Shown here: one piece after another, positions 5,734 to 18,747 of the stretch
Layout of the letters: every line of letters starts with the position of its first letter
Numbering within the stretch: the first letter of the stretch is position 1
Assembly (NCBI GenBank): GCA_036229005.1
Contig: JAZAMN010000022.1
Coordinates: forward strand, 20,174-84,173
DNA: 64,000 nucleotides
Direction: 5' to 3'
Source of the DNA: Myxococcota bacterium
GTDB taxonomy: Bacteria; Myxococcota_A; UBA796; CAJQPC01
Translations under genes and position numbers: made by a program
Notes under the pieces: model-generated
Told to the model about the DNA's origin: nothing
Database searches by the model: none
The model's input: the letters and a program-made list of their open reading frames with translations, nothing else

Positions 5734-6078
5734 CTACAGGAGTCCGCCCCACTGCTGCTCGGTGTAGGCGCTGCAGGTGGCCTCGTCTGCGGAGAGATCA
5801 GCGAGGCGTTCGCTGCACATGGATTCGGTGCGGTGGGCCGCAGAGGGGTCTCCGGCCGAGATCTCCTCCTCCTCCAACACCAGCAGCTCCCAGGTCCAGA
5901 CCTCGCAGGAGGCCTGGAAGTCCTGGCCGTCGCTGTAGCCGGCGTCCTCCCAGCCCAGGCCCCAGTCCTCCAGGCAGGCGCCGTAGAGGCTCTGGGCCTC
6001 CGCGCACATCTGCAGGCAGGGCTCGGGGGCCTGGTCGGGGTGGGCCGCGCAGGCCAGCAGCGACAGCCAGATCGGCAT
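5734..6078 (-). CDS. Small Cys-rich lipoprotein
   Basis: MPIWLSLLAC lipobox; start overlaps upstream stop (TGATG). Confidence 0.7.
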   Translation of the reverse strand: MPIWLSLLACAAHPDQAPEPCLQMCAEAQSLYGACLEDWGLGWEDAGYSDGQDFQASCEVWTWELLVLEEEEISAGDPSAAHRTESMCSERLADLSADEATCSAYTEQQWGGLL

Positions 6079-7232
6079 CAGTAGAAGGCCATGGAGCTGA
6101 TGCCCAGGGTGGAGCTGATGTAGCCCCCCTCAGCGGTCAGGTCAGAGCAGCTGTTGATGTCCACGAGCATGGCGCCGCCGGCCACGCTGTTGGTCCAGTC
6201 GTAGCCCACGGAGATCCAGGCCTCGCCCTTGTTGTTGAGCCAGGGGCCGGAGCTGTAGGGCAGCTCGCCGCCGAGCTGGGTCATGGTCTCGGCGTCAGCG
6301 TCCAGGCAGTAGATCTCGGTGCCGTAGCTGGGGGTGTAGACGGTCATCAGGGCCTTGCCGGCGTCGTTCATGACCATGCCGCCGATGTCGCCGGAGACGT
6401 CGGACTCGGTCACGATGGGCTCGGAGAGCAGGCCCTCGGAGAGGCTGAGGGTGCGCAGGTCGCCGTCGGGGCTGCCGTACATGCCGGTCTGGACGAACAC
6501 CACGTCGCTGTCCTGGGGGTGGGCGCTGATGCGGGGGTTGACGCCCACCTCGTGGCTGCCGACGATGGCCTCGGTGGCGCAGTCGATCTCCAGGACCTGG
6601 CCGGGGCCGGCGCTGGCGAAGGTCTCCTGGTCCAGGATCTGGAGGGCAAGGATCAGGCGGTCGCCGTCCTTGATCATCGCGGCGGCTTCAGGCAGGCCGT
6701 CGGCGTCGGCGTAGGCGCTCAGGTCGATGGCGCCCGCGGGGTTGCCCTCGGCGGAGAAGATGGCGACCTTGTCCACGCCGTACTGGCTGACGAAGATCTT
6801 GTCGTCGCAGAAGTAGGCGGCCTGGGGGTTGGAGCCCTCGGCCAGGGAGATCTCCTGGGGGTTGGACCAGTCGCCGATGTCGTAGATGCGCAGGTAGTCG
6901 AAGCCGTAGCGGCCGAGCTGCAGGACCTTGCCCTGGTCCACGGTGACCCAGGCGTCAGAGGCGATGTCGGCCACGTCGGTGGCGTTGCGGCTGTCCAGCG
7001 CGAAGGTGGTCAGGGCGCCCACCGAGTAGTCGGTGGTGGTGGCGATGGCCATGGTGTGCTCGGGGTCGGCGTCCGCGTCGGAGTCGGAGTCGGCGTCCGA
7101 GTCGGCGTCGGCGTCGGCGTCGGCGTCGGTGTCGGCGTCAGCCTCTTCGGTGTCGCCGGTCTCCTCCAGATCGGCGGCGGGGGGGCAGCCCAGCAGGACG
7201 GCGAGGGACAGGGACAGGGCGGTGAGGGTCAT
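6078..7232 (-). CDS. Lipoprotein with acidic D-A/D-S linker and probable beta-propeller (YncE/BtuG-like)
   Basis: MTLTALSLSLAVLLGC lipobox, (DA/DS)n linker, propeller-like blades (GSNPQ, VGVNP); ATGA overlap with the TonB receptor stop. Confidence 0.75.
   Translation of the reverse strand: MTLTALSLSLAVLLGCPPAADLEETGDTEEADADTDADADADADSDADSDSDADADPEHTMAIATTTDYSVGALTTFALDSRNATDVADIASDAWVTVDQGKVLQLGRYGFDYLRIYDIGDWSNPQEISLAEGSNPQAAYFCDDKIFVSQYGVDKVAIFSAEGNPAGAIDLSAYADADGLPEAAAMIKDGDRLILALQILDQETFASAGPGQVLEIDCATEAIVGSHEVGVNPRISAHPQDSDVVFVQTGMYGSPDGDLRTLSLSEGLLSEPIVTESDVSGDIGGMVMNDAGKALMTVYTPSYGTEIYCLDADAETMTQLGGELPYSSGPWLNNKGEAWISVGYDWTNSVAGGAMLVDINSCSDLTAEGGYISSTLGISSMAFY
7065..7143. repeat. Coding hexamer repeat (GTCGGC/GTCGGA)n encoding the DADADSDAD linker
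   Basis: About 13 tandem imperfect 6-mers visible in the sequence. Confidence 0.75.
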
Positions 7233-9262
7233 GGGGTCTCCGGAGAGGGCGACCAGCGCAGGGTCAACAGGACCGTGCGGCCGGGCAGCGGATAGCCGAC
7301 AAAGTCGGTGAGTGGTTGAAGGATCAGGTTGTCGTCCTGGGGATCCAGGACGTTGCGGGCCACGGCCTCGACGCGCTGATCGCGCAGGTTGAGGACCGAG
7401 AGCTCCAGGGAGGGGAGCGCCGGCTTGGGCTGCACCCGCAGGAACACGCCGTGCAGGCTGCGGGGGGGCACCAGGTACCAGTTCGTGCGGTCCCAGTAGG
7501 ACTGGGCGCTGTAGCTCCAGGTGTGCCCCAGGCGGACGCGCTCGCCCCAGTGCACCGAGCTGACCTGGGAGAGCTCCCAGAGGGGGATGCGGGGGAGCTG
7601 GTTGTCGGCCACGGCCGGGTCGGCGGTGAGGTTCACGCTCAGGGTGCGGGTCAGGTTGGACTGCAGCGAGACCCAGCCATGGAGCTCGGCGCTCAGGGCG
7701 GCCTCGACCCCCTGCACCCACGCGCGGCCGACGTTGTGGGCCACCAGGGTCTTCTGCGAGTTCTGGCTCCAGGTGATCAGGTTCTCGCTGTTCCGCCAGT
7801 AGTGCCCCAGCTCCAGGCTGCCCTGGATGCCCCAGCTCTGGGGGCTCTGCAGGCGCGCGCCCACGTCGGCCTGCCAGCCGGACTCGGGGGAGAGATCGGG
7901 GTTGCCCACGAGCACGCCGCGGTCCCCGTAGAGCTCTCCAAAGTCGGGGGGGCGCAGATAGCGGCCCGCGCTGGCCTTGAGGATCACCCCCTGGACCGGC
8001 AGGGCAGCCACCCCGATCCGGGGGGTGAACGCCGCCAGCGAGGACACACTGGCGCTGTCCACCCACAGCCCCTGCAGCACGGGGGAGACCCGCAGGCGCT
8101 CCTTGAGCAGCCACAGGTCAGCGGAGGCGGCGGCCCCGGTGGTCCAGCGCAGGTGCTGTTCGGCCTTGGCGCCGGGGTCCATCAGGTCCTGCGCGCTGGC
8201 CTGGTCCAAGCGGCCCCACGCGGTCCCCCGCAGGATCACGCTGGGGCTGGGCGCCCAGGCCACGCTCGCCAGAGTGCCGAGCTGCTGGGTGCTGGTGCGC
8301 TGCTCCCGGGCGCCGAGCACGATCTCCCCCAGGGGGTCATCCAGGGTCTCGACGCGGAGCTGGTGCCAGGCGCGGGCGGAGAGGCTGAGCTGCCCTGTCC
8401 CTGCCTGGGCCTGCAGCCCGACCAGGTTCCGGCGGCTGTCCAGGCGGGTCTGGTAGGAGCGGGCGCCGCTGTGGCCCGCCAGCCCCTCCTCCCGGAGCAT
8501 GGGGGCCCAGAGCAGGCTGAGCTCGGCGGGGCCGACGGGGCGCTCCAGGCGCAGCAGGCCGGAGATCTGGTCGCTGTCGTTGTTCTGGCGGACCTGGAGG
8601 CGGTCGTCCATCAGCGTGTAGCGGGTGCCGCCGTCGTCGAAGTAGGAGAAGTCCCCGTCGGAGTGGAAGGCCTCCCCCAGCACGAGCACGCGGGTCTGAC
8701 CGAGCTGCCCGGCGTGGGAGGCGCCGGCCTTGCGGTATCCAAAGCTGCCCACGCTGCCGTGGACCTGGGTGCCGCGGGCGTCTCCAGGGACCAGGTTGAC
8801 CACGCCGCCGATGGGGGCCGCGCCGAGCTGGGGAGGCGGGTTGCCGCGGTAGATCTCCACCCGCTCGAAGCTGTGCAGCGGCAGCTCGCTGAGGTTGACC
8901 GCCGCGCTGCCGTCGGGGTTCAGCGGGATCCCGTCCAGGTGGATCTGCACCTGGCGGCTGCTGGAGCCCCGGATGCTGACGGTGGCGTAGTCCCCCAGGC
9001 CGCCCAGGCGGTTGACGGTGGTGCCCGAGGCGCTGTCCACGACCTGCGCGACGTCCCAGCTCGAGGGCAGGCGCTCGTCGACCTGGATGACGGTGACGGG
9101 GGCGGCGCTGCGCTGGGGATCGGCCTGCTCGCTGCGTTCACCGTGGACCTCGATGACGCCGCCGGCCTCCCCTCCCCCATCGGACGCAGCCCCATCGGAC
9201 GCACCGGTGTCTTCCTGGGCGAGCGCCAGGGAGAGCAGCAGGATGGGCGAGATGGGGGACAT
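7229..9262 (-). CDS. btuB: TonB-dependent receptor, probable cobalamin/cobinamide receptor
   Basis: Signal peptide, plug motifs (SIRGS, LDGIPLN, ERVEIYRG, GGVVNL), C-terminal GYPLPGRT; directly downstream of a cobalamin riboswitch. Confidence 0.85.
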   Translation of the reverse strand: MSPISPILLLSLALAQEDTGASDGAASDGGGEAGGVIEVHGERSEQADPQRSAAPVTVIQVDERLPSSWDVAQVVDSASGTTVNRLGGLGDYATVSIRGSSSRQVQIHLDGIPLNPDGSAAVNLSELPLHSFERVEIYRGNPPPQLGAAPIGGVVNLVPGDARGTQVHGSVGSFGYRKAGASHAGQLGQTRVLVLGEAFHSDGDFSYFDDGGTRYTLMDDRLQVRQNNDSDQISGLLRLERPVGPAELSLLWAPMLREEGLAGHSGARSYQTRLDSRRNLVGLQAQAGTGQLSLSARAWHQLRVETLDDPLGEIVLGAREQRTSTQQLGTLASVAWAPSPSVILRGTAWGRLDQASAQDLMDPGAKAEQHLRWTTGAAASADLWLLKERLRVSPVLQGLWVDSASVSSLAAFTPRIGVAALPVQGVILKASAGRYLRPPDFGELYGDRGVLVGNPDLSPESGWQADVGARLQSPQSWGIQGSLELGHYWRNSENLITWSQNSQKTLVAHNVGRAWVQGVEAALSAELHGWVSLQSNLTRTLSVNLTADPAVADNQLPRIPLWELSQVSSVHWGERVRLGHTWSYSAQSYWDRTNWYLVPPRSLHGVFLRVQPKPALPSLELSVLNLRDQRVEAVARNVLDPQDDNLILQPLTDFVGYPLPGRTVLLTLRWSPSPETP

Positions 9263-9352
9263 GTCCGGCCGGGGTCGGGGGGCACAGACAGAGGTCCACC
9301 AAGGCGGTGGTTCCTGAGCCTGTCTGCATCCCCGCAGGCAAGTTCGTGGACG

Positions 9353-9532
9353 CACGCGCAGGCCGGTCTCCTGGCTCCTGGACCCTTGGGCTGGCCTTCC
9401 CGGAGCGCGCTCCAGTGGCAGTCAGCCAAGTCGCTCCCCGGGGGGAGCCGTCCAGTCACAGTGGCGGGGGCCGCGTCGGTTTCACACCGACTTCCCGTTT
9501 CACCCAGAGCGGACTCCGGGCACCTGCGCGTG
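9353..9532 (-). ncRNA. Cobalamin riboswitch
   Basis: Minus strand reads AGGTG..AAACGGGAAGTCGGTGTGAAACCG..CCCCCGCCACTGT..GCCACTG..GGGAAGG..AGCCAGGAGACCGGCC; 10-bp closing P1 helix. Confidence 0.93.
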
Positions 9533-9594
9533 GTTCAGACGTCAAAGAAGGTGGGCGTTGTACCCCCCGACGGCCCCGATGGCAAGTACATCGG

Positions 9595-10623
9595 CTAGGG
9601 ATCCGCGGGGCCCAGGCACGCCAGCAGGCGGTCGCCCTGCGCGGGGGTCTGCGGGCTGATCCGGATGTGCTCAGGCAGACCAAAGGACACGCAACTCCGG
9701 ACCACAACCCCTTGGGCCAGCAGGCGCTCAAAGCAGGCCTGGGCACCCGGGGTGCGCACGAGGAAATAGGGCGCGTGACCGCCCTGCACCGCCCAGCCCA
9801 GGTCCGCGATGGCGCCCATCAGGCGCTCCCGCTCCCGCCAGACGGCCGCGATCCCAGGGGCGTAGAGCTGGGGGTGGGAGACCGCGACGGTGGCGGCGGC
9901 CTGGGCCAGGGCGTTGACCCCCCAAGGCAGCAGGAGCGCGCGCACGGCGGCCAGAAAGCCCGGGTCCCCGACGGCGTATCCGACCCGCAGCCCGGCCAGC
10001 GCGTGGTCCTTGGTGAGCGAGCGGAGCACCAGCCGCCCAGGGCGCCAGGCGGGCGCCGGCGGGGGCTGCAGGAAGCCCATGTAGGCCTCGTCGATCAGCA
10101 GCGGGGCGATCCCCTGGAGCTGGGCCAGGATGTCCTCGCTGGTGAGCCGACCTGTGGGGTTGTTGGGGTTGCACACCACGATGAGCTGCGGTGAGCTGGC
10201 CCGCACCCGAGCGGGCAGATCCGCTCCCTCCTGGACCTGGACGGGCTCGGCCCCCGCCTGGAGCACGGCGGCCCGGTATTCGCCGAAGGTGGGCCCGACG
10301 ATGGCCACGCGGTCCCCGGGGCCCACGCAGGCCCGGACGGCGGCGTAGAGCAGCTCGATGGAGCCGTTGCCCACCAGGAGCTGGGCTTGAGGGAGTCCGG
10401 TGTGCGCGCTGAGGGCGGCGAGCAGGCCGGTGCAGTGGGGGTCGGGGTAGGCGCGCACGTCGCAGGCGGCGAGGGCCCGCAGCACGGGCTGCGGCGTCGG
10501 GATGGGCAGCAGGGTGGCCGAGAAGTCGATCAGGGCGTCGGGGTCCAGGCCGCGCGCGGCGAGCTGGCGCTTGCCTCCGTGGGGCACGGGCTGCAGGCGA
10601 CGCACCCAGGGCTTGGGGATCAT
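9595..10623 (-). CDS. cobD: L-threonine-O-3-phosphate decarboxylase (class I/II PLP aminotransferase fold)
   Basis: HGG, DFSA, YPDP, GNGS, CNPNNPTG, DEAY, RSLTKDHALAGLRVGY; cobalamin cluster context (Salmonella-type naming). Confidence 0.8.
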   Translation of the reverse strand: MIPKPWVRRLQPVPHGGKRQLAARGLDPDALIDFSATLLPIPTPQPVLRALAACDVRAYPDPHCTGLLAALSAHTGLPQAQLLVGNGSIELLYAAVRACVGPGDRVAIVGPTFGEYRAAVLQAGAEPVQVQEGADLPARVRASSPQLIVVCNPNNPTGRLTSEDILAQLQGIAPLLIDEAYMGFLQPPPAPAWRPGRLVLRSLTKDHALAGLRVGYAVGDPGFLAAVRALLLPWGVNALAQAAATVAVSHPQLYAPGIAAVWRERERLMGAIADLGWAVQGGHAPYFLVRTPGAQACFERLLAQGVVVRSCVSFGLPEHIRISPQTPAQGDRLLACLGPADP

Positions 10624-11279
10624 GGGGACTCCAGGCAGGCGCGCCCGCCAGCGCGCACGGCATCCAGCACGCAGCGGCCCACCGCGCTGCCGATGGCGGT
10701 GTGTTTTCCGGCGAACGCAAGGGGGGCGGCGCCGGTGAGGGGCGCGGCGACCACGACGCAGTCGGTCCCGGTGCCGGTGGCGCGGTCTCCGGAGCGGACG
10801 CTGGCCACGCCCAGCTCGTGTACGGCCAAGGTGCGGGCCTCGACGGCCAGGCTCAAGACCTCCAGCAGCGCGGCGGCGCTCAGAGGCTGGCCCACCTGGA
10901 CCAGGAGGTTGATGGTCCCGGCCACAGGCGCCAACCCCGGGGGATCCCCGATCCGGAGCCGGTTGCCCAGCCCCACGGTGGCCACGCACTCCGCGGCGGC
11001 GCGCTCCCCCTGGTGCTCCAGCTCGGCCCGGCAGTGGACCACCCGCGAGACGGAGGCCGAGGTCAGCAGCCCCACGGCCTCCGGTCGCCCACAGCCGCTC
11101 AGAGCCCCGCGCAGCAGCGCGCCCGCGTCCACATCCAGGCCCAGATCGCCGTCGCGCACCTGCCGCCAGACCACGGCCTGGGCCTCCCGCAGGCCGCCGC
11201 CCTCCAGCGCCCAGCTCAGGACCCGGTGGGGCGCGCCCAGGTCGACCGCCAAGATCGGCGGGCGCAGGCTCAGCTCCAC
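10620..11279 (-). CDS. cbiZ: Adenosylcobinamide amidohydrolase
   Basis: ATVGLGN, GTINL, VEART, ATGTGTDC, AGKHT motifs; GTG start overlapping the cbiB end. Confidence 0.88.
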   Translation of the reverse strand: MELSLRPPILAVDLGAPHRVLSWALEGGGLREAQAVVWRQVRDGDLGLDVDAGALLRGALSGCGRPEAVGLLTSASVSRVVHCRAELEHQGERAAAECVATVGLGNRLRIGDPPGLAPVAGTINLLVQVGQPLSAAALLEVLSLAVEARTLAVHELGVASVRSGDRATGTGTDCVVVAAPLTGAAPLAFAGKHTAIGSAVGRCVLDAVRAGGRACLESP

Positions 11280-12187
11280 AGCGCCCCCAGGACGGCAGCC
11301 GTCAGGCCCCCATGGAGCAGCATCGCCCGCTGGGAGAGGGTGCAGGCCAGCCTCAGATCCGCCGCACCGCAGGCCCGCCCCGGGGCGCCCAGGGTGTAGT
11401 GCCCCGGCTTGTCCAGGCGCACCCCGAGCAGCCCGGCCATCGTCGCCATCGGCCACCCCGCGTTGGGGCTGGAGGTGACCCGGCGGTCGCGCCAGAGGGT
11501 CCGGAGCCCCCCACGCACCGAGGCCTGGGGCACGCTCAAGCCCACCAGCAAGAGCCACAGCGCGGTCAACCGCGCCGGGAGCAGGTTCAGCAGGTCGTCC
11601 AGGCGGGCGGCGGGCTTGCCCAGCCACTCGTAGCGGGGGGTGCGGTAGCCGATCATCGCGTCCAGGGTGTTCACGCAGCGGTAGGCCAGCAGCGCGGGCA
11701 GGCCGAGCTCCAGGGGGCTCCCCAGCACCAGCCAACACAGGGGCGCGACCAGGCTGTCCGAGGCGTTCTCCGCGATGCTCTCCGTCGCCGCCGCCGCGAG
11801 CTGGGGGGCCGTCAGCGCCTGCGGATCCCGACTGCACAGCCAGGACAGTCCGCCCCGAGCGGCCTCCAGGTCCCCCGCCTCCAGCGCGTCCGCCACCCGG
11901 TGCCCCGCCGACACCAGCCCCCACCACGAGAAGCCCGAGGTCAGCAGCCAGAGCGCCAGGACCGGTCCCGCCCAAGGCACCCGCTCCAAGAGCCCCAGCG
12001 CGGAGAAGGCCAGCGGGAGCCCCAGCGCCATCGCCGTGCCGTGGAGCAGCGCGCCGACCCGCCCCGCAGGCGCCCGCTCCCGGAGCCAGCCGACGGCGTT
12101 GCCCATCCACACCACCGGGTGGACCTTGAGGGGGGGCTCACCCACCCGATCCAAGGCCAGCGCCCCGAGCAGCAAGAGCCCGCTCAC
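11270..12187 (-). CDS. cbiB: Adenosylcobinamide-phosphate synthase CbiB
   Basis: GEPP..HPVVWMG, ESIAENASD, YRCVNTLDAMIGY, ARLDD, SPNAGWPM; GTGA overlap with the cobS stop. Confidence 0.93.
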   Translation of the reverse strand: MSGLLLLGALALDRVGEPPLKVHPVVWMGNAVGWLRERAPAGRVGALLHGTAMALGLPLAFSALGLLERVPWAGPVLALWLLTSGFSWWGLVSAGHRVADALEAGDLEAARGGLSWLCSRDPQALTAPQLAAAATESIAENASDSLVAPLCWLVLGSPLELGLPALLAYRCVNTLDAMIGYRTPRYEWLGKPAARLDDLLNLLPARLTALWLLLVGLSVPQASVRGGLRTLWRDRRVTSSPNAGWPMATMAGLLGVRLDKPGHYTLGAPGRACGAADLRLACTLSQRAMLLHGGLTAAVLGALWS

Positions 12188-12927
12188 AGCAGGCCGAACC
12201 CCGCCAGCACCAGCAGCTCCGTGCCCACGCAGGCGGCCCCCAACAGGTCCCCGGTGATCCCCCCCAGGCGCCGCCGGAACCACAGGCCCAGCAGGAGGGT
12301 GAGGATCCCGGCGCCCAGCAACAGCAGCCCACCCATGGGCCCCAACAGCGCGCCGCACAGCCCGACAACCACCCCAAAAGCGAGGACAGACCGTCCCCAC
12401 CCCAGCCCCGGCACCATGCGGTCGGCCAGGCCCTTGTTCTCCTGCCGGGCGTAGGGCAGCGCGGCCATGAGCAGCAGGGTGGACCAGCGGCCCAGGGCGT
12501 GGGCGAGCAGCAGCGCGGGCAGCCACTGGGCGGGCTCCAGGGCGCGCAGGGCCTCCAGGCGCAGGGCGAAGGCCACGACCACCGCGACCACCCCGTAGGC
12601 CCCCACCCGGCTGTCCCGGAAGATACGCAGGGCGCTCTCCCGATCCCGCCCGCCGCCCAGGCCATCGGCGGTGTCGGCCAGGCCGTCTTCGTGCAGCGCG
12701 CCCGTGAGCAGCGGACCGAGCGAAAGCACGCCCAGCGCCACGCTCAACCCCGGCGACAGGCCCAGGGTGTGCAGGCCCAGCGCAGCGCCGCCCAGGGCGG
12801 CCCCGATCCCCGCGCCCACCACCGGGAACCAGGGCGTGGCGCGGGCCAGGTCGTCCTCGCGGTAGTCGCGGGGCCACCCCAGGGGGATGCGCGTCAGGAA
12901 GGTGATGGCGGTGGCCAGGCCTCTCAT
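12184..12927 (-). CDS. cobS: Adenosylcobinamide-GDP ribazoletransferase (cobalamin synthase)
   Basis: FLTRIP, TGALHEDGLADTADG, DSRVGAYG, GGITGDLLGA. Confidence 0.95.
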   Translation of the reverse strand: MRGLATAITFLTRIPLGWPRDYREDDLARATPWFPVVGAGIGAALGGAALGLHTLGLSPGLSVALGVLSLGPLLTGALHEDGLADTADGLGGGRDRESALRIFRDSRVGAYGVVAVVVAFALRLEALRALEPAQWLPALLLAHALGRWSTLLLMAALPYARQENKGLADRMVPGLGWGRSVLAFGVVVGLCGALLGPMGGLLLLGAGILTLLLGLWFRRRLGGITGDLLGAACVGTELLVLAGFGLL

Positions 12928-12934
12928 GCGGGGC

Positions 12935-13969
12935 TCACTCCGGGGGCGGTCCGGCGGCGGCCAGGACCTCCTGGAGGGTGGCCATCTCCGACATCACGGC
13001 GCAGGCGGAGCGCAGCATGGGCAGGCAGAGGGCGGCGCCGCTGGCCTCGCCGAGGCGCAAGCCCCAGTCCAGCAGGGCCTCGCCGGCGCCCAGAGCCTCC
13101 AAGATGGCCCGGTGGCCAGGCTCAGCGGAGGCGGTGGCCGGTCGAATGAAGCGGGCCAGGGATCCCCTCCCCTTCACCGCGCAGAGCGCCGCAGCGCCCA
13201 CGATGAAGCCGTCCAACAACACGGGGATGCCCCGCTCGGCGGCTCCTTCGATGCAGCCGGCGATCGCGGCGAGCTCCAAGCCCCCCAGATCGGCCATCGC
13301 GGCCCAGGGGTCGCTGGGGCCATCGCGGTCCAGGGCGGCCTGCACGACGGCGACCTTGTGGGCGACACCCGCCGGGTCCAGGCCCGTCCCGGGGCCCACC
13401 ATCTCCTGCGCGGAGCGGCCCAGCAGGCGGGCGGAGAGCGCAGCGGCGGGGGTGGTGTTGCCGATGCCCATCTCGCCGAGGGCGAGCACCTGGATCCCGT
13501 CCCGGGCGGCCCGCTCGGCGGCGTCCACACCGGCCTGTCGCGCGGCCTGGAGCTGCTCGGGGGTCAGCGCGGGGCCCAGCATCAGGTCGGCGCTGCCCCG
13601 GGCCACCTTGGCGTTCACCACGGACACGCCGGGGGCGGGCGCAGGCAGCACGTCCAGGCCGGCCACGCCCACGTCCACGACCTCCAGCTCCGCGCCCGCC
13701 TGGCGCGCCAGAACGGACACCGCCGCCTTGCCCGCCGCGAAGGTGTGCACCATCGCCACGGTCACCGCCTGCGGGTAGGGACTCACGCCCTGCGCCACCA
13801 CGCCGTGATCGCCGGCGAACACGACCACGCGGGCCTTGTCGGCCTGGGGCATCGGGGTGTCCTGACACTCGGCCAGCCACAGGGCCAGCGCCTCCAGCCG
13901 CCCCAGGCTGCCGGGGGGCTTGGCCAGGGAATCCAGGTGGGCCTGCGCGGCCTCCACGCTCTCGCTCAT
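12935..13969 (-). CDS. cobT: Nicotinate-nucleotide--dimethylbenzimidazole phosphoribosyltransferase
   Basis: KPPGSLGRLE, FAGDHGV, GEMGIGNTT, LDGFI, LRLGEASGA. Confidence 0.95.
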   Translation of the reverse strand: MSESVEAAQAHLDSLAKPPGSLGRLEALALWLAECQDTPMPQADKARVVVFAGDHGVVAQGVSPYPQAVTVAMVHTFAAGKAAVSVLARQAGAELEVVDVGVAGLDVLPAPAPGVSVVNAKVARGSADLMLGPALTPEQLQAARQAGVDAAERAARDGIQVLALGEMGIGNTTPAAALSARLLGRSAQEMVGPGTGLDPAGVAHKVAVVQAALDRDGPSDPWAAMADLGGLELAAIAGCIEGAAERGIPVLLDGFIVGAAALCAVKGRGSLARFIRPATASAEPGHRAILEALGAGEALLDWGLRLGEASGAALCLPMLRSACAVMSEMATLQEVLAAAGPPPE

Positions 13970-14475
13970 CGCGTCTCCTTCAGGGTGAGGACCTGCCCCA
14001 GAGCCACCAGCTCCACGCGGTCACAGAGTTCAGCCAGGCGCTGGCCCAGGAAGCCGGCCTCATCGCGGAAGCGGCGCGCCAGGGGGTTCAGGGGGACGAT
14101 GCCCAGCCCGACCTCGTTGGTGACCAGGATGACGGGGTTGGGCGCAGCCTGCAGCGCATCGGCCAGAGCGGTGAAGTCGGCATCCAGCGGGCCCTCCTTC
14201 CGCTCGTGCAGCAGGTTCGAGACCCAGAGCGTCAGGCAGTCCAGGAGCACGACCTTGCCGGGCTGGTGCAGGTGGGGGGCCACGTCGATGGGGGCCTCGA
14301 TGGTGGTCCAGCCGGCGCCGCGGTCCGCCTGGTGTCGGGCGATGCGGTCGGTCATCTCGGCGTCGAAGGCCTGTCCGGTCGCCAGGTAGACGCGCTCGGG
14401 GGCCAAAGACTCGGCCAGGGCCTGGGCGCGGCGGCTCTTCCCGCTGCGGGCGCCGCCGGTGATGAGGGCCTTCAT
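13966..14475 (-). CDS. cobU: Bifunctional adenosylcobinamide kinase / cobinamide-phosphate guanylyltransferase
   Basis: ITGGARSGKS, RIARHQ, DCLTLWVSN, VTNEVGLGIVP, RRFRD. Confidence 0.95.
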   Translation of the reverse strand: MKALITGGARSGKSRRAQALAESLAPERVYLATGQAFDAEMTDRIARHQADRGAGWTTIEAPIDVAPHLHQPGKVVLLDCLTLWVSNLLHERKEGPLDADFTALADALQAAPNPVILVTNEVGLGIVPLNPLARRFRDEAGFLGQRLAELCDRVELVALGQVLTLKETR

Positions 14476-15140
14476 GGGGTGCCTCCAAGGGGCAGGGCGT
14501 GGGCCGTCTGCAGGGGACTCAGGGGCACGCGCGCGTCCCACTCCACCCGCTCGATGCGGTCGAAGGACAGGGGAATGGGGGGCAGCGCGCGCAGCGCGGA
14601 GAGCGCCTGGACGATGGGCCCGGTGGGGGTGGCCGGGTGGAAGAGCCCCACGGTGACGTGCGGCGCGTAGGGCGAGAAGCGCAGGTCCCGAGAGCCCTGG
14701 GAGAGGCGGGCTCTGAGGCCCTCCAGAGCGCCTTCGGCGTCGTCCACCTCCAGGACCGCGCAGCCCTCGAAGCAGCTCGCCGATCCCACCCGCAAGCGAG
14801 GACAGGCTGCCCCGCTCAGGGCCTGGGCCTGCGCCGCGAGCTGGCCGGCGTCCACGCTGTCCTCCACCCACCCGGGGGGCAAGGGCTCGGCGCTGGGGCC
14901 GTCCACGAAGCCGGCTACCCACACGGTGATGTGCAGGTCGCTGCTGGGTAGCGGGCGCAGCCACGGAGACAGCGCCTGGGCCACCTGCCGGACGCGCCGA
15001 ACCGCCTCGGATGCGCCCACCCGCAGCACCCACGCGGAATAGCGCGCGCGCCCCCGCAGCCAGGCCTGTCGGCCACCCGGCGGGGGATCTGCGGTGTGGG
15101 GCAGCGCGCAGAAGCGCGCCCAGGCGGCCGGCCAGTCCAT
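14472..15140 (-). CDS. 2H phosphoesterase (2'-5' RNA ligase-like superfamily)
   Basis: Two HxT motifs (LHITV, PHVTV) about 90 aa apart; overlaps both neighbours. Confidence 0.8.
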   Translation of the reverse strand: MDWPAAWARFCALPHTADPPPGGRQAWLRGRARYSAWVLRVGASEAVRRVRQVAQALSPWLRPLPSSDLHITVWVAGFVDGPSAEPLPPGWVEDSVDAGQLAAQAQALSGAACPRLRVGSASCFEGCAVLEVDDAEGALEGLRARLSQGSRDLRFSPYAPHVTVGLFHPATPTGPIVQALSALRALPPIPLSFDRIERVEWDARVPLSPLQTAHALPLGGTP

Positions 15141-15742
15141 CAGAACTCGACGCCCTTGCGCGCCCGGATGCCGGCGTCGAAGGCGTGCTTGACCAGGGTG
15201 TGCTCGGTGACGGTGTCGGCGGCGTCGATCACGGCCTGGGGCGCGTTGCGGCCGGTGACCACGATGGAGACGTGCTCGGGCTTGTTGCGGAGCACCTGGG
15301 CGACCTCGTCGGCGTCCAGGTAGTCGTAGCGCAGGGCGATGTTCAGCTCGTCCAGCACCACCACGTCGTGGGCGCCGCCCTGGATGAACTCCTTGGCCAT
15401 CGCCCAGCCCCGCTCAGCCGCGGCGATGTCCTTGGCGCGGTCCTGGGTGTTCCAGGTGAAGCCCTCGCCGGAGACCACGTGGGTGATCTCGGGGAAGCGC
15501 TTGAGGGCGGCCTGCTCGCCGGTCTTCCAGGTGCCCTTGATGAACTGGACGACGGCCACCTGCTGGCCGTGCCCGGCGGCGCGGATTGCCACCCCAAAGC
15601 CAGCGGTGGACTTGCCCTTTCCGTCACCGGTGTGGACGATCACCACGCCGCGCTTGATGTCCTTGGAGCGCGCCTTGGCGTCCTGCTCGGCCTTGAGGGC
15701 GGCCATGGCGGCCTTGTGCTCTTGTTCGGTGGGCTGGCTCAT
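15140..15742 (-). CDS. cobO: Cob(I)yrinic acid a,c-diamide adenosyltransferase (CobO/BtuR)
   Basis: HTGDGKGKSTAGFG, VQFIKG, LDELN, TGRNA, KHAFDAG..A.KGVEF. Confidence 0.95.
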   Translation of the reverse strand: MSQPTEQEHKAAMAALKAEQDAKARSKDIKRGVVIVHTGDGKGKSTAGFGVAIRAAGHGQQVAVVQFIKGTWKTGEQAALKRFPEITHVVSGEGFTWNTQDRAKDIAAAERGWAMAKEFIQGGAHDVVVLDELNIALRYDYLDADEVAQVLRNKPEHVSIVVTGRNAPQAVIDAADTVTEHTLVKHAFDAGIRARKGVEF

Positions 15743-16689
15743 TGGGGGCTCCGGGGGTGGACACGGGGTTGCAGCTCCTGGGCGGTCTTGAGCACGCCCA
15801 GGCCGGGGTCATTGGGGTAGCTGGGGGGCAGCTCGACGATCCGCCCGCCTTCGTGGCAGGCGCGGAGCTGCTCCAGGATGGAGTGCCGGCAGATGGTCGG
15901 GGTGCTGCCGCTGGGGGCCAGGATCAGGGGGGGATCCAGGGCCAGCAGGTCCTCGGCGCTGTAGCGGGGCCACATCTGGTGGCCGGCGTCCGCCGCCACG
16001 TCGTGGATGCCGCTCAGGCGCAGCATGTCGCCGTAGCTGGTGCCTTGGGTGCCGCCGTACCAGGCGTCCCCAATGACGCTCAAGTAGATGCCGTCGATGC
16101 GCTGGTCGGGCGGAACGGCCAGCTCCAGGGCGCGCTCCTGCAGGTCCAGGCTGCGCAGCAGGGCGTCTCCGCGGGCCGGGGCGCCGACGAGCTGGGAGAG
16201 CAGGCGGATGTCCTCGCGGGTGGACTCCAGACCGTACATGCCGCCCAGGTCGAAGGTGGGGATGCCCTCCTCCTCCAAGCGGGCGAGCAGCGCAGCGTCC
16301 ACAAAGTTGGAGACGATCACCAGGTCGGGCTGGGCGCGGAGGATGGCCTCCAGGCGGTTGTTCTGTCCGATGGGGATCTGGGCGGAGAAGCGCCAGCCCT
16401 CGGAGTTGCCGGCGACGTTGGCCTCGGTGATGGCCACGAGCCGGCTGGGCTCCACCAGCTCCAGCAGCAGGTGGTCGGCGACCATGTGCAGGGAGACGAT
16501 GCGCTGGTAGTCGGCCACGGGGACGGCGATCCCGCGGCCATCCACGACCTCGGTGAGCGCGGCGGTGCTCTGGGCGGTGGACACGGAACCGGTGACCTCG
16601 GCGGCGGGCGGCGCAGCCCACATGGCCCCGGCCACCGAGCCCGCCAGAGCGGTGAGGAGCAGAGCCCCGTTGAGCAGCTCAGCCTTCAC
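15739..16689 (-). CDS. btuF: Cobalamin ABC transporter substrate-binding protein
   Basis: VDGRG...QRIVSL, EAIL..QPDLV, EDLLALDP; next to permease and ATPase under a B12 riboswitch. Confidence 0.8.
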   Translation of the reverse strand: MKAELLNGALLLTALAGSVAGAMWAAPPAAEVTGSVSTAQSTAALTEVVDGRGIAVPVADYQRIVSLHMVADHLLLELVEPSRLVAITEANVAGNSEGWRFSAQIPIGQNNRLEAILRAQPDLVIVSNFVDAALLARLEEEGIPTFDLGGMYGLESTREDIRLLSQLVGAPARGDALLRSLDLQERALELAVPPDQRIDGIYLSVIGDAWYGGTQGTSYGDMLRLSGIHDVAADAGHQMWPRYSAEDLLALDPPLILAPSGSTPTICRHSILEQLRACHEGGRIVELPPSYPNDPGLGVLKTAQELQPRVHPRSPQ

Positions 16690-17426
16690 TCCCCCTCCCC
16701 GGGCAGCGACCAGGACGGGGCCTGGCCGGGGTGCATCTGGACGCCGTAGACCTGCAGGATGGGCTCGGGGGCGACGATCCCGGAGACCGGTCCGAAGGCG
16801 TGGACGCGGCCCTCGTGCAGGAGCACGGCGTCGTCGGCGTGGCGCTGGGCCTCGGCGAGATCGTGGAGGACGGAGACCACCAGGTGGCCCTGGTCGGCGA
16901 GCTCCCGCAGCACGCGGTGGATGGCGAGGGCGTGGCCCAGGTCCAGGGCGGAGGTGGCTTCGTCCAACAGCAGGGTGGTGGCGCCGACGGCCAGGGCGCG
17001 GGCCAGCAAGACGCGCTGCCGCTCGCCGCCGGAGAGCTGGGTGAAGGGGCGCTCCGCCAGGGCGGTGATCGAGACGCGCTCCATGGCCTGGTCCACCTGC
17101 TTGCGGCCGCCGCCGCCGTGGACGAAGCGGCCCAGGGCGACCACCTCGCGCACGGAGAGGGGGGCGTTGAGCAGGCTGCGCTGGGGCACGTAGGCGACGC
17201 GGCGGGCGCGCTCGGGGGGCGACAGGGCGCCCAGCTCCTGGCCGTCCAGGGTGATGCGGCCCTGGCTGGGGAGCAGGCCCAGGATGGCCTTGAGCAGGGT
17301 GCTCTTGCCGACGCCGTTGGGGCCCAGCAGGGCGGTGATCCGGCCGCGCTCCAGGCGCAGGTCCACGCCGTCAAAGACCTGGTGGTCGCGGTGTCCGGCG
17401 CGCAGGCCGTGGAGCTCCAGGCTCAT
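16686..17426 (-). CDS. btuD: Cobalamin ABC transporter ATP-binding protein
   Basis: GPNGVGKST, LSGGERQR, LLLDE, H-loop VLHD. Confidence 0.88.
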   Translation of the reverse strand: MSLELHGLRAGHRDHQVFDGVDLRLERGRITALLGPNGVGKSTLLKAILGLLPSQGRITLDGQELGALSPPERARRVAYVPQRSLLNAPLSVREVVALGRFVHGGGGRKQVDQAMERVSITALAERPFTQLSGGERQRVLLARALAVGATTLLLDEATSALDLGHALAIHRVLRELADQGHLVVSVLHDLAEAQRHADDAVLLHEGRVHAFGPVSGIVAPEPILQVYGVQMHPGQAPSWSLPGEGE

Positions 17427-18424
17427 CCCAGCCTCCCCTGGCGGGCGGCGCGGGCCAGCAGGAAGAGGAACACGGGGGCGCCGACCAGGCCGGTGACGAC
17501 GCCCAGGGGGAGCGCGCCGGTGGTGGGGGCCAGGCGGACGATGAGGTCGGCCCAGAGGACGAACGCGGCGCCCCCGACGGCGGCGGCGGGGAGCAGGCGG
17601 CGGTGGCCGGCGCCCAGGAAGGGACGGAGGCCGTGGGGGACGACCAACCCGACGAAGCTGAGGCCGCCCCCGATGGCGACGGCGGCGGCGGTGAGGGTGG
17701 CGGTCCAGACGATGACCCAGCGGCGCACGCGGGGGACGTTGACGCCCAGAGAGGCGGCCTCGTCTTCGCCGGCCAGCAGCACGTCCAGGTGGCGGGACCA
17801 GCCCATGCCCGCGGCGAGTCCGGCGGCGACCAGGGGGAAGGCCAGCGCGACGTGCCGAGCGCCCTTGGTGTCGATGCCGCCCAGGGTGAAGGCGACCACG
17901 GCGCGGCCCAGCTCCCAGTTGTCCTGGGCGATGCTCATCATCAGGCCGCCCACGCTCAGGAAGAGGCTGCTGAGGATGAAGCCGGTGAGCAGGGTGGCCA
18001 CCATGCCGGGGTTGCGCCCGCTGACCAGCAGCAGGAGCATCAGCGCGCCCCAAGCGCCCAGCAGGCACCCCAGGGGCAGCAGCAGCTCGGGGGGCAGGAA
18101 GCCCGGCAGCACGGCGGCCAGCAGGCCCTCCCACGCGACCATCACCAGCATGCCACCCAGGCTCGCGCCGGCGGTCGTGCCCAGGATCGAGGGGCTGGCC
18201 AAGGGGTTCCGGAACAGGCCCTGCACCAGCACGCCGCCCACAGCCAGGGCCGCCCCCGCCAGGCAGGCGTTGAGCACGCGCCAGAGCCGCAGGCGGAACA
18301 GGGTCTGCTCCAGCGCGCCCTGCTCCTGGCCGGAGCCCAGCCACAGCGCCAGGCCCACCCCGCCAAAGAACAGGAGCAGGAGCACGGTCCAGACGCCCAG
18401 GACGCCGCGGGGAGGAGCGCTCAA
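17423..18424 (-). CDS. btuC: Cobalamin ABC transporter permease (FecCD/BtuC family)
   Basis: QGLFRNPLASPSILG, GEDEAASLGV, FVGLVVPH, GAPVFL; TTG start uncertain. Confidence 0.88.
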   Translation of the reverse strand: MSAPPRGVLGVWTVLLLLFFGGVGLALWLGSGQEQGALEQTLFRLRLWRVLNACLAGAALAVGGVLVQGLFRNPLASPSILGTTAGASLGGMLVMVAWEGLLAAVLPGFLPPELLLPLGCLLGAWGALMLLLLVSGRNPGMVATLLTGFILSSLFLSVGGLMMSIAQDNWELGRAVVAFTLGGIDTKGARHVALAFPLVAAGLAAGMGWSRHLDVLLAGEDEAASLGVNVPRVRRWVIVWTATLTAAAVAIGGGLSFVGLVVPHGLRPFLGAGHRRLLPAAAVGGAAFVLWADLIVRLAPTTGALPLGVVTGLVGAPVFLFLLARAARQGRLG

Positions 18425-18498
18425 GGGTGCAGGGGGAGTGGGGGGCCAAGGGGCCCAGAGAGTCGCCGCATCCTTCCCTCCGAAGGACTGGGGTGATC

Positions 18499-18691
18499 GC
18501 AGAGGCCGGTCTCCTCGCTCCCGCTGATGAGTCTCGGGGACTCCTCGCGCCGCGCCTTCCCAGGGGAGTCCCCAGTGGCATGTGCGGTGCGATTCAGCGG
18601 TCAGAGTGGCGGGGGCCGCGCCGGTTCGCGGAGGCCCCCAGGGGGGCGCGCGTCCGGACTTCCCGTTTCATCCCCGAAGGGACACCTCTGC
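18499..18691 (-). ncRNA. Cobalamin riboswitch (second copy)
   Basis: Minus strand reads AGGTG..AAACGGGAAGTCCGG..CCCCCGCCACT..GCCACTG..GGGAAGG..AGCGAGGAGACCGGCC; P1 GCAGAGG/CCTCTGC; upstream of btuC. Confidence 0.9.
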
Positions 18692-18747
18692 TGGGTCAAT
18701 GAACTGGCGCCTGTCCTAGCGTGCGCTCCCCCCCCTCGCAAGCGCGC

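Follow-up and report, generated by a model that had tools for sequence, protein, structure and literature searches.

The gene at positions 14472–15140 (minus strand) of the window, the whole 64,000-nucleotide stretch of DNA that was analysed, encodes an intact 2H phosphoesterase of 222 aa, as judged by sequence and predicted fold. It is likely a real accessory gene of B12 loop assembly that had no earlier assignment, and one for a cobamide-remodelling enzyme. For the specific role that we favour, a cobamide-loop phosphodiesterase that feeds CobU and would remodel or proofread complete cobamides, as an analogue of CbiR with an unrelated fold, we estimate a probability of about 0.45. On the same odds it would be a fourth, independently evolved remodelling enzyme, a metal-independent 2H phosphodiesterase stripping the lower ligand of B12-family cofactors. 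That the subfamily has some role in the cobamide pathway is very probable. The remodelling routes named in a 2026 review are CbiZ, CbiR and Vibrio CobS. The sequence-only reading knew of no 2H enzyme with an assigned place in cobamide metabolism, and none was found in the literature searched, in which subscription journals were thinly covered (including PMC7733943, PMC12931638, PMC4201822, PMC8406329, PMC9426561 and PMC8123684).

The same reading had described an ORF with two HxT motifs overlapping cobO upstream and cobU downstream, and both features were borne out. The 2H gene shares 1 nt at its start with the cobO stop and 4 nt at its stop with the cobU start, and it resembles the neighbouring genes in codon GC pattern. 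The product matched PF13563 in a Pfam search (E 2.2e-10); its Pfam matches were limited to this family and PF02834, and it belonged neither to the histidine-phosphatase (RHG) nor to the CobZ family. No NCBIfam model, TIGR02258 included, matched at E 0.01. Both catalytic motifs are intact, H70-I-T72 at 14925–14933 (family form HxTx[FW]VxGF) and H161-V-T163 at 14652–14660 (family form PHxTxGx[YF]), and are separated by approximately 80–90 residues, as for the 2H superfamily. The existing annotation is an RNA-ligase-like protein, with nothing further.

The operon lies entirely on the minus strand and begins with a cobalamin riboswitch (18487–18704, RF00174, 79.7 bits). This is followed by genes for a BtuC-like ABC permease (17423–18424, Pfam/NCBIfam search, start codon uncertain), a BtuD-like ABC ATPase (16686–17426, with Walker A and ABC signature in the translation), a BtuF-like binding protein (15739–16689, PF01497) and the adenosyltransferase CobO/BtuR (15140–15742, Pfam/NCBIfam). 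Downstream of the 2H gene are cobU, for the bifunctional AdoCbi kinase/guanylyltransferase (13966–14475, NF004469 over cut-off), cobT (12935–13969, TIGR03160 over cut-off), cobS (12184–12927, PF02654), cbiB (11270–12187, TIGR00380 over cut-off), the amidohydrolase gene cbiZ (10620–11279, PF01955, E 1.5e-48) and a cobD-like threonine-phosphate decarboxylase gene (9595–10623), whose best match, TIGR01140 at 241 bits, was below the 291 cut-off. A second cobalamin riboswitch (9344–9542, 106.3 bits) then precedes the gene for a BtuB-like TonB-dependent receptor (7229–9262, Pfam/NCBIfam search). Behind this riboswitch, btuB is followed by two genes without a Pfam match (6078–7232 and 5734–6078, both minus strand); in G037 (L034) btuB has both genes conserved behind it, and in G415 (L144) that at 6078–7232. 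The 6078–7232 product is lipoprotein-like, with an Atlas model resembling YncE/DUF5074/XusB beta-propellers (TM 0.66–0.78), and we take it to be a candidate BtuG-like B12-binding lipoprotein.

The source genome (G000 in our analysis) is 94% complete. Judging by the Atlas clusters to which a neighbouring gene belongs, its lineage is probably Myxococcota. It contains cobQ, unlinked to the window operon, and no BluB over cut-off; the replacement base in any remodelling would therefore come from outside. No second PF13563 match was found in it, and neither the CbiR superfamily (PF01261) nor TIGR02258 had a match. B12-binding domains over cut-off number 19 in this genome, and many belong to proteins of 460–600 aa. 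From their size, many of the latter are probably B12 radical SAM enzymes, consistent with a high B12 demand.

To place the protein, phmmer was run over 1.84 billion representatives, and 311 relatives had an E-value of 0.001 or less. Alignment A1 (78 rows) consisted of the query and 77 of the best 150 relatives, selected without regard to motif. Residues W27, R31, H70, G77, F78 and H161 were invariant, and Y34, W37, T72, D94, F124, R154 and T163 were at least 90% conserved. Both catalytic histidines were found in 78/78 rows, T72 in 77/78 and T163 in 76/78. The extended ThpR motifs, HxTxxF and HxTxxR, were absent from the subfamily in this alignment: at the +5 positions after the catalytic histidines were V75 (V in 67/78, F not among the top residues) and L166 (L in 32 and R in 11 of 78). 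The predicted model had a confident two-lobed 2H fold, the nearest solved structures being ThpR-type and CPDase proteins at 10–17% identity. Members carry the database label 2'-5' RNA ligase; by their aligned sequences, they form a separate 2H subfamily, unnamed and distinct from ThpR. Shorter homologues with an internal gap of approximately 25 residues form a basal branch (G048, G058 and G383; L035, L036 and L041), and these genomes also have cobU-cobS.

Beyond the window's order and Moraxellaceae, homologues of the 2H gene lie next to cob or btu genes in four or more lineages. Overall, at least six distinct types of B12 neighbourhood were seen. Within the window's phylum, 3/22 homologue loci were linked and 19/22 unlinked. 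The three linked loci (G046, G393 and G037), from the same order and three families, all read 2H-cobU-cobT-cobS; G046 was the best match to the window protein (47%), and in G037 the 2H gene lies behind a riboswitch and btuB. In metagenome locus L169, it is directly upstream of cobU. These four sequences and the window protein appear to branch near the base of the clade in an unrooted FastTree tree. Moraxellaceae/Acinetobacter operons read 2H-cobU-cobT-cobC-cobS, with a 2-nt gap, while a Methylibium megaplasmid reads cobT-cobS-cobC-2H. The latter operon ends, after the 2H gene, with a hypothetical protein (L123:10675-11295) that has a Cys-rich C-terminus and no Pfam match, and that we presume to resemble CblC/MMACHC- or QueG-like B12 proteins. 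In Halopseudomonas, the 2H gene is divergent from riboswitch-btuB, with cobU-T-C-S 6 kb downstream in G423. It is adjacent to B12 genes in Rhodanobacter loci L094 and L101, L239 reads btuCD-2H-x-cbiM, and the order in Rhodospirillales is 2H-queH-riboswitch-btuB. QueH, a B12-independent queuosine enzyme, stands between 2H and btuB in L122 and L194, the cobalamin riboswitch being confirmed in L122. Across carriers, the commonest direct neighbour was cobU.

The frequency of linkage was estimated from two samples. A GTDB scan by one motif gave 169 relatives, and 22 of the best 80 loci lay near B12 genes (9 Acinetobacter, 10 Halopseudomonas-type, 2 Rhodanobacter and 1 Rhodospirillales). By a stricter rule, the best 80 of 169 comprised 20 linked, 55 unlinked and 5 that were too short, and 80 metagenome loci comprised 10, 21 and 49, respectively. 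The share expected by chance was approximately 0.4%, the part of the window's genome that is no more than 3 kb from a cob or btu gene. Unlinked copies, among them one on a Vitreoscilla plasmid, had varied neighbours, and Dyella loci had a second, LigT-type 2H gene nearby. No cobalamin riboswitch was found at the 11 unlinked loci or the three Acinetobacter operons scanned. Linkage to cob genes extended to several phyla, in a minority of loci.

Pooled over all samples, 72/72 genomes with a core 2H member carry cobS. No core member was found in the 432 cobS-negative genomes searched (31 from the window's phylum, 151 Moraxellaceae, 99 Rhodanobacteraceae and 151 Anaerolineae), two of which hold weak sister-group matches. 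These genomes are samples, many of them incomplete, and the alignment searches scored at most 7–19 candidates per genome; because carriers in one family are related to each other, the genomes greatly outnumber the independent events. Of the 60 relatives drawn, 17 had the 2H gene, all with cobS, 12 had cobS alone and 31 had neither. The association within the window's order gave p = 2e-5 when stratified by family, 0.056 by genus and 2e-4 with one genome per genus, kinship partly remaining. Adding G000 and five phylum-sample matches, 23/23 carriers of the window's phylum had cobS and 23/23 had cobU. In many of these, cobU, cobT and cobS are scattered, and unlinked 2H genes are therefore expected there. 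In G005, G008, G011, G015, G020, G021 and G007 (L131-L151, L165), for example, cobU and cobS occur on separate contigs among unrelated genes; most of these seven genomes are without cbiB, and they would have a dispersed minimal loop-assembly pathway.

Other families gave the same pattern. In Moraxellaceae, 28/201 genomes were carriers and 28/28 of these were cobS-positive (one by a contig-end fragment), as were 50 genomes overall; this adds little beyond linkage, because the copies are mostly linked. In Rhodanobacteraceae, all 13 carriers among 151 genomes were cobS-positive (52 overall) and all were unlinked, though they may largely be one clade. Eight further carriers from various phyla were all cobS-positive. 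The 266 Anaerolineae genomes gave one core member and two weak matches (96 and 65 bits; L249 in G857 and L250 in G912) in cobS-negative genomes. The weak matches, which lack the W-GR-Y-W, VxGF and DD motifs, were set aside post hoc; one of the two genes follows a Nudix-like gene, and these sister-group proteins are a possible ancestral pool. As a control, ThpR was over cut-off in 10/66 of the same genomes and only 4/10 of those had cobS, so that the distribution of canonical ThpR is not tied to cobS. The carriers share a CobU-CobS module. However, the 2H gene was missing from 12/35, 22/50, 39/52 and 114/115 cobS-positive genomes (window's phylum, Moraxellaceae, Rhodanobacteraceae and Anaerolineae, respectively), and is an accessory gene, dispensable in most of them. 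Together, the multi-phylum neighbourhoods and cobS co-occurrence support well the tie to cobamide metabolism first proposed from the window.

In cobamides, a ribose 3'-phosphodiester lies beside a free 2'-OH, and this diester would be the substrate of the 2H protein. Known 2H enzymes cleave ribose phosphodiesters that have a free hydroxyl group beside them; USB1, which acts on 3',5' bonds, and the 2',5'-phosphoesterases do so by transesterification to a cyclic phosphate (as described in PMC4201822 and PMC8406329). By the favoured, Usb1-like route, the 2'-OH would attack the phosphorus to give cobinamide and an alpha-riboside 2',3'-cyclic phosphate, and the kinase and guanylyltransferase activities of CobU would reactivate the cobinamide. 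Alternatively, ThpR-like hydrolysis of P-O3' would give cobinamide-phosphate and alpha-riboside, the products of CbiR. From known 2H chemistry, cobinamide with ribazole 2',3'-cyclic phosphate would be at least as likely a product as the cobinamide-phosphate of the sequence-only reading. The products of either route would enter at CobU, bypassing CbiZ, CbiB and CobD, so that, in cobamides that were imported or wrongly assembled, the enzyme would cut the nucleotide loop and CobU, CobT and CobS would rebuild it. Many carriers have cobU, cobT and cobS without cbiB or cbiZ; in these, CbiZ-independent entry at CobU would therefore be the only route for reworking cobamides, CobS-type exchange aside.

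Our estimate for remodelling reflects the shared CobU-CobS module, the frequency of cobU as neighbour and the prospect that 2H cuts yield a CobU substrate. Also counted in its favour were the placement upstream of cobU, the cobS co-occurrence, the ThpR control, the absence of cbiB and cbiZ from carriers, the lack of PF01261 in the source genome and the chemistry of 2H enzymes. Against it, most copies are unlinked, the gene is accessory in cobS-positive genomes, and the window operon already has CbiZ. Loci scanned, whether unlinked or from Acinetobacter, were riboswitch-free, and an unregulated cofactor-cleaving enzyme risks futile cycling. In addition, each of the A. baumannii genes cobU, cobS and cobT can complement Salmonella in the absence of the 2H gene, and the ethanolamine ammonia-lyase of that species works with several cobamides (PMC9426561), so that there is less need for remodelling. 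Of the three roles first suggested for the window gene, remodelling nevertheless fits best.

The other two of those roles do not hold for the family in general. A non-orthologous CobC substitute, acting as 5'-phosphatase on AdoCbl-5'-P or alpha-ribazole-5'-P, was suggested by the lack of CobC and CobZ in the cluster. By tblastn the window operon is indeed without cobC, as are the three related 2H-cobU-cobT-cobS clusters, and 2H-negative G026 has cobT-cobS-cobC. Yet the two genes were not mutually exclusive, as such a substitution would predict, since they share an operon in Acinetobacter and in Methylibium, where cobC is directly upstream of 2H, and in Halopseudomonas G423 the cob operon nearby includes cobC. 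These Acinetobacter and Methylibium genes were identified as cobC by synteny and best match, below the TIGR03162 cut-off; the Acinetobacter order agrees with cobU, cobT, cobC, cobS in A. baumannii, where cobC is named (PMC9426561, whose main text mentions neither a phosphoesterase nor a ligase-like gene at the cob locus). The source genome itself has an unlinked gene for a CobC-like phosphatase of 417 aa (G000:C50:46860-48113; L168:6861-8111). Its C-terminal half has no family assignment, but its N-terminal histidine phosphatase domain scored best as CobC, at 141 bits against 147 for the operonic Acinetobacter CobC, and from its sequence it is likely the cobC of this genome. The 2H activities described in PMC4201822 and PMC8406329 are also on diesters or cyclic phosphates, and we regard a CobC substitute as very improbable. 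The recycling of the aminopropanol-phospho-ribazole fragment released by CbiZ is more improbable still. It would fit the presence of cbiZ, cbiB and the cobD-like gene in the window operon, and the fragment contains the same phosphodiester, but cbiZ was in 0/5 carriers tested, closest homologue G046 included. Likewise, cbiB was in 0/27 Moraxellaceae carriers and 10/23 of the window's phylum, being missing from 13/23 of the latter; it was thus not found in 40/50 carriers tested (80 chosen genomes examined). Such recycling would be at most a local side role.

The enzyme might instead repair or salvage lower-ligand nucleotides and spare intact cobamides, by opening alpha-ribazole 2',3'-cyclic phosphate left by cobamide breakdown or clearing putative side products of CobT/CobS, for example a 2'-linked isomer or alpha-dinucleotide. 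The linkage and co-occurrence data fit this equally, 2H enzymes most often hydrolyse cyclic phosphates, and the closest folds are those of ThpR and CPDases. Such an enzyme would act together with the CobC of the same operon, and could do without riboswitch control and would set up no futile cycle, matching the riboswitch-free loci. However, the source of the cyclic phosphate is hypothetical, and the conserved neighbour is cobU, a corrin-side enzyme gene, more than cobT or cobC; we consider repair rather unlikely. A general cyclic phosphodiesterase of RNA or nucleotide repair, a passenger with the cob genes and without a cobamide substrate, would agree with the mostly stand-alone copies and their varied neighbours, with the database names, with its being the only PF13563 or ThpR-like match found in much of the window's family, and with the sister group without cobS. 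Against this are the 0/432 result in cobS-negative genomes even though copies elsewhere are unlinked, the at least six kinds of B12 neighbourhood, the missing ThpR motifs and the ThpR control, and the separate LigT-type gene near the Dyella loci. A passenger gene would therefore seem distinctly unlikely.

The ability of microbes to rewrite lower ligands shapes nutrient sharing in communities. If remodelling is correct, it would be a new remodelling chemistry and a cofactor substrate for the 2H superfamily. The enzyme would then be masked by the name '2'-5' RNA ligase family protein' in anaerobes and myxobacteria-like lineages as well as in Acinetobacter, pseudomonads and Rhodanobacteraceae. 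Many such hosts are now counted as cobinamide salvagers only, and many cultured bacteria, Acinetobacter species among them, would be reclassified. Under the weaker reading, the gene would still be an accessory to nucleotide-loop assembly that had no assignment before.

Compared with known systems, the window protein has 10–16% identity to ThpR/LigT, a 2',3'-cyclic phosphodiesterase of RNA (TIGR02258). It lacks the HxTxxF and HxTxxR motifs of ThpR (PMC4201822) and, unlike ThpR, has a 30-residue N-terminal extension with invariant W27 and R31, as well as GF77-78 and DD94-95; the distributions of the two across genomes also differ. Identity is approximately 10% to Usb1 and to the 2',5'-phosphoesterases AKAP7, ns2 and VP3, eukaryotic and viral enzymes whose substrates are RNA or 2-5A (PMC8406329). 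The amidohydrolase CbiZ and Vibrio CobS also rework complete cobamides, through other bonds and folds (PMC7733943, PMC12931638), and the CbiZ route needs CbiB downstream, whereas most 2H carriers tested are without cbiB. CbiR of Akkermansia muciniphila differs in being an AP endonuclease 2 enzyme with a TIM barrel, in the linkage of its homologues (approximately 80% cob-linked, against approximately one-quarter of sampled 2H copies) and in its demonstrated activity, giving Cbi-P and alpha-ribazole, while the activity of the 2H protein is a prediction (PMC7733943). CbiR is likewise an accessory gene and, as proposed for the 2H protein, its product cuts the loop phosphodiester, is encoded beside cobU, cobT and cobS, and releases a corrinoid that enters at CobU (PMC7733943).
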